A program made the position numbers and the translations under genes. A stretch of 64,000 nt of DNA from Escherichia coli (GTDB lineage Bacteria; Pseudomonadota; Gammaproteobacteria; Enterobacterales; Enterobacteriaceae): NCBI RefSeq assembly GCF_045037415.1, contig NZ_CP173438.1; one strand, given 5' to 3'. Of the stretch, positions 18,218-37,284 are shown piece after piece (position 1 is the stretch's first letter; each line of letters opens with the position of its first letter). Under the pieces are notes generated by a model. That model saw only the letters and a list, made by a program, of their open reading frames with translations, was not told the DNA's origin and did not search any database.

Positions 18218-18246
18218 CTTGAAACCCTGAAACTGATCCCCATAAT
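18218..18246 (+). promoter_or_regulatory. Sigma-32 heat-shock promoter of grpE
   Basis: CTTGAAA at 18218-18224 and CCCCATAAT at 18238-18246 match the sigma-32 -35 and -10 consensus with 13 bp spacing, about 45 bp upstream of grpE. Confidence 0.75.
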
Positions 18247-18258
18247 AAGCGAAGTTAG

Positions 18259-18885
<627 letters not shown>

Positions 18886-32872: not shown

Positions 32873-33853
32873 ATGGCACAACGAGTACAGCTCACTGCAA
32901 CGGTGTCCGAAAACCAACTCGGTCAACGCTTAGATCAGGCTTTGGCCGAAATGTTCCCGGATTATTCACGTTCGCGGATAAAAGAATGGATCCTCGACCA
33001 GCGTGTGCTGGTTAACGGCAAAGTGTGTGATAAGCCGAAAGAAAAAGTATTGGGTGGCGAGCAGGTTGCCATCAACGCTGAGATTGAAGAAGAAGCGCGT
33101 TTTGAACCGCAGGATATCCCGCTGGATATCGTCTATGAAGATGAAGATATCATCGTTATTAATAAACCGCGCGACCTGGTGGTACATCCTGGCGCGGGTA
33201 ACCCGGATGGCACGGTACTGAATGCATTGCTTCATTATTATCCGCCCATTGCCGATGTACCGCGTGCGGGCATTGTCCATCGTCTGGATAAAGACACCAC
33301 TGGCCTGATGGTTGTGGCAAAAACCGTTCCGGCTCAGACGCGTTTAGTCGAATCTTTGCAACGGCGTGAAATTACACGTGAGTATGAAGCGGTGGCAATT
33401 GGTCATATGACCGCTGGCGGTACAGTAGATGAACCAATCAGCCGCCACCCGACCAAACGTACTCACATGGCGGTACATCCCATGGGTAAACCGGCGGTCA
33501 CTCACTATCGCATCATGGAACACTTCCGTGTGCACACGCGTCTGCGGTTGCGTCTGGAAACCGGACGTACGCACCAGATCCGCGTGCATATGGCCCATAT
33601 CACTCATCCGCTGGTGGGCGATCCGGTTTATGGTGGACGTCCGCGTCCGCCAAAAGGTGCTTCGGAAGCGTTTATCTCCACGCTGCGTAAGTTTGACCGT
33701 CAGGCGCTTCATGCAACCATGCTGCGTCTTTATCACCCGATCTCCGGCATCGAAATGGAATGGCATGCGCCTATTCCACAAGATATGGTGGAGCTGATTG
33801 AGGAGATGCGCGCCGATTTCGAAGAGCATAAGGATGAAGTGGACTGGTTATGA
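32873..33853 (+). CDS. rluD: RluD, 23S rRNA pseudouridine synthase
   Basis: 326-aa ORF with an S4 domain and the RluA-family motif HRLDKDTTGLMVVAK. Confidence 0.95.
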   Translation: MAQRVQLTATVSENQLGQRLDQALAEMFPDYSRSRIKEWILDQRVLVNGKVCDKPKEKVLGGEQVAINAEIEEEARFEPQDIPLDIVYEDEDIIVINKPRDLVVHPGAGNPDGTVLNALLHYYPPIADVPRAGIVHRLDKDTTGLMVVAKTVPAQTRLVESLQRREITREYEAVAIGHMTAGGTVDEPISRHPTKRTHMAVHPMGKPAVTHYRIMEHFRVHTRLRLRLETGRTHQIRVHMAHITHPLVGDPVYGGRPRPPKGASEAFISTLRKFDRQALHATMLRLYHPISGIEMEWHAPIPQDMVELIEEMRADFEEHKDEVDWL

Positions 33854-34581
33854 GTAAGCTGATTGTCCCGCAGTGGCCGCTGCCAAAAGGTGTTGCGGCT
33901 TGTAGCTCTACCCGTATCGGCGGTGTGAGCTTACCCCCGTATGACTCGCTCAACCTCGGTGCCCATTGTGGCGATAACCCGGATCACGTTGGGGAGAATC
34001 GCAAGCGACTTTTTGCTGCGGGCAATTTGCCTTCTAAACCGGTCTGGCTTGAGCAGGTACACGGCAAAGACGTGCTTAAGCTTATTGGCGAACCTTATGC
34101 CTCAAAACGAGCAGATGCCTCTTATAGCAATACGCCTGGCACGGTTTGCGCAGTGATGACTGCCGACTGCCTGCCCGTGCTGTTTTGCAATCGTGCGGGA
34201 ACGGAGGTCGCCGCCGCTCATGCTGGCTGGCGTGGACTGTGCGCAGGCGTGTTGGAAGAGACGGTTTCCTGTTTTGCTGATAATCCGGAAAATATTCTCG
34301 CCTGGTTAGGGCCGGCAATTGGGCCACGTGCGTTCGAAGTGGGGGCGGAGGTTCGCGAGGCGTTTATGGCAGTAGACGCCAAAGCGAGTACAGCTTTCAT
34401 TCAGCATGGTGATAAGTATCTGGCGGATATTTATCAGCTTGCCCGGCAGCGTCTGGCGAGCGTTGGTGTTGAACAAATTTTCGGCGGCGACCGTTGTACA
34501 TATACGGAAAATGAGACTTTCTTCTCTTATCGTCGCGACAAGACCACCGGTCGTATGGCAAGTTTCATTTGGCTGATATAA
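33850..34581 (+). CDS. pgeF: YfiH/PgeF, peptidoglycan editing factor (DUF152, purine nucleoside phosphorylase-like)
   Basis: 243-aa ORF MSKLIVPQWPLPKGVAACSSTRIGGVSLPPYDSLNLGAHCGD...; its start overlaps the rluD stop by 4 nt. Confidence 0.9.
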   Translation: MSKLIVPQWPLPKGVAACSSTRIGGVSLPPYDSLNLGAHCGDNPDHVGENRKRLFAAGNLPSKPVWLEQVHGKDVLKLIGEPYASKRADASYSNTPGTVCAVMTADCLPVLFCNRAGTEVAAAHAGWRGLCAGVLEETVSCFADNPENILAWLGPAIGPRAFEVGAEVREAFMAVDAKASTAFIQHGDKYLADIYQLARQRLASVGVEQIFGGDRCTYTENETFFSYRRDKTTGRMASFIWLI

Positions 34582-34643
34582 CCTAAAGAATCAAGACGAT
34601 CCGGTACGCGTGATTTTCTTTTCACATTAATCTGGTCAATAAC

Positions 34644-34672
34644 CTTGAATAATTGAGGGATGACCTCATTTA
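34644..34672 (+). promoter_or_regulatory. Sigma-32 heat-shock promoter of clpB
   Basis: CTTGAAT at 34644-34650 and ACCTCATTTA at 34663-34672 resemble the sigma-32 -35 and -10 elements, about 40 bp upstream of clpB. Confidence 0.6.
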
Positions 34673-34710
34673 ATCTCCAGTAGCAACTTTGATCCGTTAT
34701 GGGAGGAGTT

Positions 34711-37284
34711 ATGCGTCTGGATCGTCTTACTAATAAATTCCAGCTTGCTCTTGCCGATGCCCAATCACTTGCACTCGGGCACGACAACCAATTCATCGAA
34801 CCACTTCATTTAATGAGCGCCCTGCTGAATCAGGAAGGGGGTTCGGTTAGTCCTTTATTAACATCCGCTGGCATTAATGCTGGCCAGTTGCGCACAGATA
34901 TCAATCAGGCATTAAATCGTTTACCACAGGTTGAAGGTACTGGTGGTGATGTCCAGCCATCACAGGATCTGGTGCGCGTTCTTAATCTTTGCGACAAGCT
35001 GGCGCAAAAACGTGGTGATAACTTTATCTCGTCAGAACTGTTCGTTCTGGCGGCACTTGAGTCTCGCGGCACGCTGGCCGACATCCTGAAAGCAGCAGGG
35101 GCGACCACCGCCAACATTACTCAAGCGATTGAACAAATGCGTGGAGGTGAAAGCGTGAACGATCAAGGTGCTGAAGACCAACGTCAGGCTTTGAAAAAAT
35201 ATACCATCGACCTTACCGAACGAGCCGAACAAGGCAAACTCGATCCGGTGATTGGTCGTGATGAAGAAATTCGCCGTACCATTCAGGTGCTGCAACGTCG
35301 TACTAAAAATAACCCGGTATTGATTGGTGAACCCGGCGTCGGTAAAACTGCCATCGTTGAAGGTCTGGCGCAGCGTATTATCAACGGCGAAGTGCCCGAA
35401 GGGTTGAAAGGCCGCCGCGTACTGGCGCTGGATATGGGCGCGCTGGTGGCTGGGGCGAAATATCGCGGTGAGTTTGAAGAACGTTTAAAAGGCGTACTTA
35501 ACGATCTTGCTAAACAGGAAGGCAACGTCATCCTGTTTATCGACGAATTACATACCATGGTCGGCGCGGGTAAAGCCGATGGCGCAATGGACGCCGGAAA
35601 CATGCTGAAACCAGCGTTGGCGCGTGGTGAATTGCACTGCGTAGGTGCCACGACGCTTGACGAATATCGCCAGTACATCGAAAAAGATGCTGCGCTGGAA
35701 CGTCGTTTCCAGAAAGTGTTTGTTGCCGAGCCTTCTGTTGAAGATACCATTGCTATTCTGCGAGGCCTGAAAGAACGTTACGAGCTGCACCACCATGTGC
35801 AAATTACTGACCCGGCAATTGTTGCAGCAGCGACGTTGTCTCATCGCTACATTGCTGACCGTCAGCTGCCGGATAAAGCCATCGACCTGATCGATGAAGC
35901 AGCATCCAGCATTCGTATGCAGATTGACTCAAAACCAGAAGAACTCGACCGACTCGATCGCCGTATCATCCAGCTCAAACTGGAACAACAGGCGTTAATG
36001 AAAGAGTCTGATGAAGCCAGTAAAAAACGCCTGGATATGCTCAACGAAGAACTGAGCGACAAAGAACGTCAGTACTCCGAGTTAGAAGAAGAGTGGAAAG
36101 CAGAGAAAGCCTCGCTTTCTGGTACGCAGACCATTAAAGCGGAACTGGAACAGGCGAAAATTGCTATTGAACAGGCTCGCCGTGTGGGTGACCTGGCGCG
36201 GATGTCTGAACTGCAATACGGCAAAATCCCGGAACTGGAAAAGCAACTGGAAGCCGCAACGCAGCTCGAAGGCAAAACTATGCGTCTGTTGCGTAATAAA
36301 GTGACCGATGCCGAAATTGCTGAAGTGCTGGCGCGTTGGACGGGGATTCCGGTTTCTCGCATGATGGAAAGCGAGCGCGAAAAACTGCTGCGTATGGAGC
36401 AAGAACTGCACCATCGCGTTATTGGTCAGAACGAAGCGGTTGATGCGGTATCTAACGCTATTCGTCGTAGCCGTGCGGGGCTGGCGGATCCAAATCGCCC
36501 GATTGGTTCATTCCTGTTCCTCGGCCCAACCGGTGTGGGGAAAACTGAGCTTTGTAAGGCGCTAGCGAACTTTATGTTTGATAGCGACGAGGCGATGGTC
36601 CGTATCGATATGTCCGAGTTTATGGAGAAACACTCGGTGTCTCGTCTGGTTGGTGCGCCTCCGGGATATGTCGGTTATGAAGAAGGTGGCTACCTGACCG
36701 AAGCGGTGCGTCGTCGTCCGTATTCCGTCATTCTGCTGGATGAAGTGGAAAAAGCGCATCCGGATGTCTTCAACATTCTGTTGCAGGTACTGGATGATGG
36801 GCGTCTGACTGACGGGCAGGGGAGAACGGTCGACTTCCGTAATACGGTTGTCATTATGACCTCTAACCTCGGTTCCGATTTGATTCAGGAACGCTTCGGT
36901 GAACTGGATTATGCGCACATGAAAGAGCTGGTGCTCGGTGTGGTTAGCCATAACTTCCGTCCGGAATTCATTAACCGTATCGATGAAGTGGTGGTCTTCC
37001 ATCCGCTGGGTGAACAGCACATTGCGTCGATTGCGCAGATTCAGTTGAAACGTCTGTATAAACGTCTGGAAGAACGTGGTTATGAAATCCACATTTCTGA
37101 CGAGGCGCTGAAACTGCTGAGCGAGAACGGTTACGATCCGGTCTATGGCGCACGTCCTCTGAAACGTGCAATTCAGCAGCAGATTGAAAACCCGCTGGCA
37201 CAGCAAATACTGTCTGGTGAATTGGTTCCGGGTAAAGTGATTCGCCTGGAAGTTAATGAAGACCGGATTGTCGCCGTCCAGTAA
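34711..37284 (+). CDS. clpB: ClpB, AAA+ disaggregase chaperone (Hsp104 family)
   Basis: Start at [39 protein letters not shown]..., 857 aa, with two AAA+ modules (GEPGVGKT and GPTGVGKT Walker A motifs). Confidence 0.97.

Follow-up and report, generated by a model that had tools for sequence, protein, structure and literature searches.

The 129-bp spacer between yfiH and clpB, at positions 34582–34710 of the E. coli window analysed here (the whole stretch of DNA studied, 64,000 nucleotides), contains two known and overlapping features of the + strand. One is the heat-shock promoter of clpB, of the sigma-32 type, and the other is the ryfD gene, which encodes the small RNA RyfD, about 143 nt in length, and occupies positions 34589–34731 (Table 1). 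Both are already known from the reference annotation, in which ryfD is b4609, and RyfD is represented in Rfam as RF02768. We put the probability of the whole explanation, i.e. the promoter and the overlapping RNA gene together with a number of inferred steps that individually stand at, or slightly below, an even chance, at approximately 0.9. The spacer length given in the earlier note on this DNA was borne out by the yfiH stop codon TAA at 34579–34581 in the list of open reading frames and by the clpB ATG at 34711, from which the encoded protein begins with MRLDRLT. Window positions 34560–34760 are 100% identical to E. coli K-12 MG1655, and megablast located the region 34400–34900 in 5425 of 5426 complete E. 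coli genomes. An additional in-frame ATG is present at 34699, four codons 5' of the annotated clpB start and overlapping the Shine-Dalgarno sequence, and mechanical calling of open reading frames extends clpB to this codon (861 aa). It was rejected as the start of clpB, being situated inside the Shine-Dalgarno sequence while the K-12 annotation begins at the equivalent of 34711, and represents an annotation trap. The starts of grpE and clpB are 16419 bp apart in the window as opposed to 16535 bp in K-12 MG1655, and the window strain therefore carries a net indel of approximately 116 bp relative to K-12 in this interval, despite the complete identity at the ryfD locus.

Table 1. Features of the yfiH–clpB region, in window coordinates
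Feature	Position	Strand	Basis and details
yfiH (pgeF) CDS, upstream neighbour	33850..34581	+	List of open reading frames; annotation in RefSeq for identical sequence from E. coli
Putative sigma-70 promoter of RyfD	34555..34582	+	-35-like ATGGCA 34555-60, 16-nt spacer, extended -10 TGaTATAAC 34574-82; sequence and conservation
ryfD, 143-nt small RNA RyfD (K-12 b4609; Rfam RF02768 Ysr155_RyfD)	34589..34731	+	K-12 annotation via identical alignment; Rfam; fold
5' arm of RyfD terminal helix	34593..34616	+	34605 bulged; MFE and centroid folds, inverted repeat, alignment
clpB sigma-32 promoter	34644..34671	+	-35 CTTGAAT 34644-50, 13-nt spacer, -10 CCTCATTT 34664-71; published consensus
Small hairpin TGAGG-GATGA-CCTCA, internal RyfD stem-loop	34654..34668	+	In sigma-32 spacer and -10; terminator-like scan match
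UUAAUCUCCAGUAGC, complementary to lpp 5' UTR start (GCUACAUGGAGAUUAA)	34670..34684	+	10 bp, 1-nt bulge, 5 bp
Shine-Dalgarno-sequestering hairpin	34675..34705	+	CUCC 34675-78 with GGAG 34702-05; GUAGC 34680-84 with GUUAU 34696-700
Probable sigma-32 start of clpB (adjacent A, G)	34679..34680	+	Inferred placement; starts as quoted in PMC6941012
3' arm of RyfD terminal helix	34706..34728	+	Last clpB Shine-Dalgarno bases, spacer, AUG and codons 2-6; folds; nucleotide-invariant in 53 sequences
clpB CDS, downstream neighbour	34711..37284	+	List of open reading frames, K-12 annotation; first 21 nt overlapped by RyfD
Experimentally mapped RyfD 3' end	34731..34731	+	Term-seq (PMC7815308); = K-12 2734153(-), exactly the annotated 3' end

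In the K-12 RefSeq annotation, ryfD (b4609, 'small regulatory RNA RyfD') lies at 2734153..2734295(-), which corresponds to 34589–34731(+) of the window, and clpB (2731600..2734173) and yfiH (2734303..2735034) are found on the same K-12 strand. The earlier note had stated, with low certainty, that RyfD was mapped immediately upstream of clpB, within or overlapping the spacer, and had proposed that the K-12 coordinates be checked by alignment; the two genes were indeed found to adjoin and overlap on the same strand, and the statement is correct on the basis of the K-12 annotation, the identical alignment and the Rfam match, with the refinement that the gene extends 21 nt into clpB. A cmscan search against Rfam 15 matched RF02768 to positions 34592–34730 (+) with a score of 125.3 bits (gathering score 42; E 1.6e-28) over model positions 1–140 of 140, while other Rfam matches (group II intron D5, SPRY4-IT1 and SNORD104) were far under their thresholds and were taken as chance. 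The RNA of the window, b4609, RF02768 and the Yersinia Ysr155 are the same RNA: the sequence, position and strand are those of K-12, the model match is full-length, and no difference was observed. The first base of RyfD lies 8 nt past the yfiH stop codon, and the RNA covers 122 of the 129 spacer bases in addition to the first 21 nt of clpB, taking in the sigma-32 promoter and the entire 5' UTR of clpB. Since it contains the sigma-32 promoter in its entirety, RyfD cannot derive from the heat-shock transcript.

The yfiH-RyfD-clpB arrangement is the same in Y. pestis (PMC3672283) and in 55 related loci, which were collected by one scan of genome contigs with a search pattern in which 23 central bases were fixed and the arms of the terminal helix (described below) were free; conservation of those 23 bases is consequently circular. 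The loci represent 12 genera, namely Escherichia, Citrobacter, Enterobacter (one metagenome-assembled genome, MAG), Yersinia, Serratia, Rahnella, Rouxiella, Ewingella, Hafnia, Chimaeribacter, Pantoea and Edaphovirga, and the set of 55 contains neither Salmonella nor Klebsiella. The pattern recovered no locus from these two genera, though RyfD has been reported in Salmonella, and the central block there therefore differs at one or more of the fixed bases.

It was agreed with the earlier note that the sequence by itself does not prove a separate transcript, and support for such a transcript comes from published data. Term-seq (Adams et al. 2021, PMC7815308) mapped a 3' end at K-12 2734153(-), which was assigned to ryfD as primary and to clpB as internal and which scored 2.7e7 and 7.4e7 under two conditions, orders of magnitude above neighbouring 3' ends. 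In Y. pestis, Ysr155/RyfD is among the northern blot-validated sRNAs, with mapped ends 138 nt apart; it overlaps the clpB 5' end in the sense direction and belongs to a largely constitutive, Hfq-independent group of sRNAs, and attenuation or processing was proposed for it by Beauregard et al. (PMC3672283). The discrete short transcript for which the earlier note had suggested a search is thus on record on the basis of these two studies. We give next to no credence to the reading in which the spacer comprises nothing but the promoter of clpB and an uninterrupted 5' UTR; while it is correct that sequence alone cannot demonstrate a separate RNA, this reading is refuted by the strong discrete 3' end located 21 nt into clpB (PMC7815308), by the annotated 5' end, which precedes the sigma-32 -35 element by 55 nt, by the northern listing of the Yersinia homologue with its two mapped ends, and by recovery of the RNA in ProQ co-immunoprecipitation and SEC-seq.

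The manner in which the RyfD 3' end is generated was considered separately. No intrinsic terminator was called by the scan at 34731, where the terminal helix is followed by ACUAAUAAAUU and where there is no G+C-rich hairpin with a U tract, nor was a canonical terminator called by the scan between yfiH and clpB. The bicyclomycin (BCM) ratio at the RyfD 3' end is 1.28, which is a small effect (PMC7815308) and shows the Rho dependence to be weak. Cleavage by RNase III inside the duplex is unlikely to be the source of the RyfD ends, because both ends lie outside the terminal helix.

The second feature of the spacer, a sigma-32-like promoter beginning CTTGAAT that the earlier note had ascribed to clpB, was confirmed to be present, to exceed chance and to be conserved. 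When compared to the sigma-32 consensus, CTTGAA-N13-17-CCCCATNT as quoted in PMC4263515, the clpB promoter matches at 6/6 positions of the -35 element (CTTGAA) and at 7/8 positions of the -10 element (CCTCATTT against CCCCATNT); the -10 region is contained within ACCTCATTTA at 34663–34672, and the promoter ends 40 nt 5' of the clpB ATG. Two matches to CTTGAA-N13-15-CCNCAT were counted in the 64-kb window, where 0.11 would be expected, and two or more matches were obtained in 0/100 shuffles. The second match, CTTGAAACCCTGAAACTGATCCCCAT at 18218–18243 (+), is situated 49–74 nt 5' of the start of grpE (18292–18885, +), ending 49 nt before its ATG, and is presumably the known grpE heat-shock promoter; as grpE is also a heat-shock gene, both matches therefore precede heat-shock genes. 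TTGAA and those bases of the -10 element that the search pattern had left free are invariant in all 50 distinct homologues, from Escherichia to Yersinia, Serratia, Rahnella, Hafnia and Pantoea. Transcription of clpB is reportedly RpoH-dependent and heat-induced, as Kitagawa et al. and Squires et al. are said to have found in 1991. According to the primer extension data of Squires et al. 1991, as quoted in PMC6941012, transcription begins at adjacent positions, with A as the primary and G as the secondary start. The dinucleotide AG at 34679–34680 sits 8 nt past the sigma-32 -10 element and fits these data as the probable clpB start. The promoter resembles other E. coli sigma-32 (RpoH) promoters, such as those of grpE and dnaK, in its -35 CTTGAA, 13-nt spacer, -10 element and position less than 100 nt 5' of a heat-shock gene. 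Unlike those, the clpB promoter lies wholly within another RNA gene, and its DNA also forms two RyfD stem-loops.

RyfD is predicted to adopt a closed, multi-branch fold with a minimum free energy (MFE) of -52 kcal/mol (z -5.61), and 0/200 shuffled sequences were as stable. The reverse strand of RyfD reaches only -42.7 kcal/mol, and an antisense RNA was rejected on account of this poorer fold and of the annotation, the Rfam match and the Term-seq data, all of which are on the clpB strand. The fold is closed by a 23-bp terminal helix with one bulged base, in which, in both the MFE and centroid structures, 34593–34604 and 34606–34616 are paired with 34706–34728; its core is a perfect 10-nt inverted repeat (AAGACGATCC/GGATCGTCTT). 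The annotated ends of RyfD lie 4 nt before and 3 nt after the base of this helix. Within the closed structure, two small hairpins are positioned over the sigma-32 promoter, one over its -35 element and the other over its spacer and -10 element; the pairs of the latter (TGAGG-GATGA-CCTCA, alignment columns 73-77/83-87 in the RNAalifold analysis) are kept in 48–50 of the 50 sequences, this stretch being partly fixed by the search pattern. The pairs of the hairpin that sequesters the Shine-Dalgarno sequence are kept in 49–50 of the 50 sequences (with CUCC likewise partly fixed by the pattern), and the same helix is present in the Rfam consensus structure.

The terminal helix was examined in the homologues at the level of the alignment and of individual folds. 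RNAalifold retained the outer 11 bp of the helix in the alignment. Changes in the 5' arm are almost all pair-preserving and one-sided (A<->G opposite U, and C->U opposite G), with one disruptive change in Rahnella laticis and loss of the entire 5' arm in Rahnella rivi. RNAalifold detected no double-sided compensatory changes among the 50 distinct sequences, such covariation being impossible because the 3' arm never varies. As MAFFT misaligns the inner half of the helix owing to variable bulge lengths, folds of the individual sequences were used in place of the alignment for this part. By this approach, the 5' end was predicted to form 20–29 pairs with the start-site region in 49/50 distinct homologues, and the AUG was fully paired to the 5' arm in 46 of the distinct sequences. 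When the 5' 40 nt were shuffled as a control, which proved less discriminating than desired, 69 of 500 sequences (14%) still reached 20 pairs, and the mean MFE rose from -51 to -34 kcal/mol. In the Rahnella rivi locus (L041:2802-2947), the arm is replaced by a sequence beginning AATCAATACCCTTCACC, while the sigma-32 promoter and the invariant clpB start are kept; the MFE of its RyfD region is -28 kcal/mol as opposed to about -51 kcal/mol elsewhere, and this locus represents a natural loss-of-helix variant.

On the opposite side of the helix, clpB codons 1–6 (ATGCGTCTGGATCGTCTT, 34711–34731 region) are identical in all 53 distinct sequences from the 12 genera. Third-position entropy is 0 for codons 2–6, 1.23 bits for codon 7 and 0.9–1.9 bits for most later codons. 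The script had required ATGCGTCTGGATCGTCTT 3' of the pattern; this filter removed nothing, as the only loci lost were two truncated ones. Synonymous variation returns at codon 7, directly past the RyfD helix, and a weaker reduction continues to about codon 17. The terminal helix is conserved across the Enterobacterales and appears to impose the complete synonymous-site invariance of clpB codons 1–6, to which constraints on translation initiation could partly contribute.

The 5' end of RyfD may be accounted for by a candidate promoter overlapping the end of yfiH. An extended -10 element, TGaTATAAC, contains the yfiH stop codon TAA, and the annotated RyfD 5' end, A34589, is located 7 nt downstream; the -35-like ATGGCA upstream of it is a 4/6 match. 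The pattern TGNTATAAY is found once in the window against 2.7 expected occurrences and is thus not enriched by count, but 42/55 loci carry it at the homologous position. The surrounding block TGGCTGATATAACCTA, including the 4 nt past the yfiH stop codon, is nearly invariant across genera. Wobble entropy in the last yfiH codons is 0.14 (GCA), 0 (AGT) and 0.27 bits (ATA), as compared to 1.1–1.9 bits in the codons just upstream. Positions 34555–34585 (TGGCAAGTTTnATyTGGCTGATATAACCTA), which comprise the last nine or so yfiH codons, the stop codon and 4 nt, are conserved far past what the protein would need, and this conservation fits a promoter embedded in the end of yfiH. The default sigma-70 promoter scan of 34300–35000 called no promoter; it missed TGaTATAAC because the last base of this -10 element is C, where Y. 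pestis has TATAAT. The conserved extended -10 element at 34574–34582 is described as a putative promoter that probably drives RyfD, put forward on position and conservation only. A 20-nt inverted repeat with 75% complementarity (34500–34519/34560–34579) is also present in the 3' end of yfiH, where it overlaps the putative promoter, and may have arisen by chance.

Alternatively, RyfD may be carved from rluD-yfiH read-through or from longer clpB transcripts, with nucleases trimming these to the base of the helix. Both mapped ends are located 3–4 nt outside the base of the 23-bp helix, as would be expected from exonuclease trimming at a stable duplex, and the lack of a called terminator, whether between yfiH and clpB or at 34731, would suit such an origin, as would the imperfect -10 candidate that the scan did not call. 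Evidence against processing comes from the conservation of TGGCTGATATAACCTA through the stop codon and the following 4 nt, from an extended -10 element 7 nt before the mapped 5' end, present at the same place in 42/55 loci, and from the very high abundance of RyfD in Term-seq. We regard processing as doubtful, albeit a serious competitor to initiation at the putative promoter.

From these observations a mechanism was assembled in which the helix acts as a gate on clpB, and each of its four steps is, in our estimation, nearly as probable as its negation. RyfD would be a primary transcript of the putative sigma-70 promoter, whose conserved extended -10 element contains the stop codon of yfiH. 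The terminal helix would then define and protect both RNA ends and bury the clpB start, such that transcription from upstream would yield a stable short RNA and not a translatable mRNA. Transcription by sigma-32 would begin inside RyfD at about 34679 and give a transcript devoid of the 5' arm and the anti-Shine-Dalgarno sequence, from which clpB could be read and translated. Lastly, the released RNA would be bound by ProQ and act in trans, with the 5' end of the lpp mRNA as its best-supported partner, contacted via 34670–34684. Folding predictions bear on the second and third steps: to open 34699–34725, a transcript that begins at 34589 would require a predicted 29.5 kcal/mol as opposed to 13–15 kcal/mol for those starting at 34676–34680, and on these grounds a gate, bypassed by sigma-32 transcripts, was proposed. 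It counts against the mechanism that the Shine-Dalgarno sequence is still largely paired in the predicted folds of short sigma-32 transcripts as well. Taken as a whole, the notion that the helix constitutes a promoter-selective gate on clpB, whereby transcripts begun upstream, at the RyfD promoter or by yfiH read-through, would close over the clpB start through their 5' arm, acquire the 3' end 21 nt into clpB and give a ProQ-bound RNA that acts in trans on the lpp 5' end while sigma-32 transcripts escape, is tentative, and we consider it less likely than any of its individual steps.

A different function could be envisaged for the hairpin at the ribosome-binding site, namely that of an RNA thermometer which melts at high temperature and thereby permits clpB translation. 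This would suit a heat-shock gene whose Shine-Dalgarno sequence is paired with an upstream CUCC. Nevertheless, the anti-Shine-Dalgarno CUCC at 34675–34678 is upstream of the probable sigma-32 start at 34679–34680, and a start at this position would produce an mRNA that lacks both the CUCC and the 5' arm, so that the element would be absent from heat-shock mRNA. Furthermore, a 23-bp helix in a structure with a total fold energy of -52 kcal/mol is far too stable for melting at 42 °C, and no Rfam thermometer family (of the ROSE or fourU class) was matched. An RNA thermometer is consequently considered very improbable.

With regard to the proposed action in trans, the longest exact complement between RyfD and lpp is TGGAGATTAA. 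RNA duplexfold over-extends the RyfD-lpp pairing through long loops, and only the 15-bp core was used. The lpp segment involved, GCUACAUGGAGAUUAA, is one which we take to be the very start of the lpp mRNA. The computed complementarity agrees with a 2025 TRIC-seq preprint that reports a strong and specific contact of RyfD with the lpp 5' UTR (bioRxiv 10.1101/2025.09.11.675593), and a review cites RIL-seq chimeras that join RaiZ with both RyfD and lpp (PMC9438474). [quoted passage not shown]

We know of no loss-of-function phenotype of RyfD, and the RNA could be a stable by-product that itself has no function, its conservation arising only from the sigma-32 promoter, the clpB ribosome-binding site and coding constraints. 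Much of the RNA does coincide with promoter, 5' UTR and coding sequence, its genetic interactions were among the fewest when double deletions were screened (PMC9426594), and the phenotypes reported, i.e. lowered biofilm formation and swarming, were obtained by overexpression only (PMC4606813). Against this, the 5' arm at 34593–34616 is outside the promoter, UTR and coding sequence and yet maintains its pairing in 49/50 homologues while its sequence changes between clades. The synonymous sites opposite this arm are also frozen, and RyfD is among the most abundant ProQ ligands and has reported RNA partners. A by-product without function is thus judged unlikely, and more so than an origin of RyfD by processing.

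RyfD may be compared with two groups of known RNAs. It resembles 5'-leader and attenuation sRNAs (rnTrpL and the 5' UTR 3' ends found by Term-seq) in being a short, abundant sense RNA that ends before or just inside a downstream coding sequence, but it differs from these in that it has no evident ligand, leader peptide or canonical terminator, and in that the main clpB promoter lies inside the leader, so that the proposed escape would be set by the promoter used and not by an antiterminator. Similar to the ProQ/FinO-class sRNAs (SibA-E, RaiZ and FinP), RyfD is highly structured, Hfq-independent and, according to published data, abundant in ProQ co-immunoprecipitation; unlike the members of that class, it does not originate from a 3' UTR and is not antisense to a toxin gene. 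Neither the K-12 record nor the RyfD literature cited here describes the candidate promoter, the frozen synonymous sites or the terminal helix that covers the clpB start.

As a finding, the assignment of the spacer is of little weight, given that the promoter and the sRNA are already in the reference annotation and in Rfam, and its residual value is a cheaply testable hypothesis for an sRNA without an established function. The helix that buries the start codon, the frozen sites, the internal heat-shock promoter and the 15-base complementarity to lpp suggest that clpB is insulated from constitutive upstream transcription and that the by-product RNA is reused as a trans-acting RNA. If the proposed gate proves true, the five frozen synonymous sites in clpB codons 2–6 would be its evolutionary footprint in four families of the Enterobacterales, and the clpB locus would be linked to lpp, which encodes the most abundant envelope protein of the cell.
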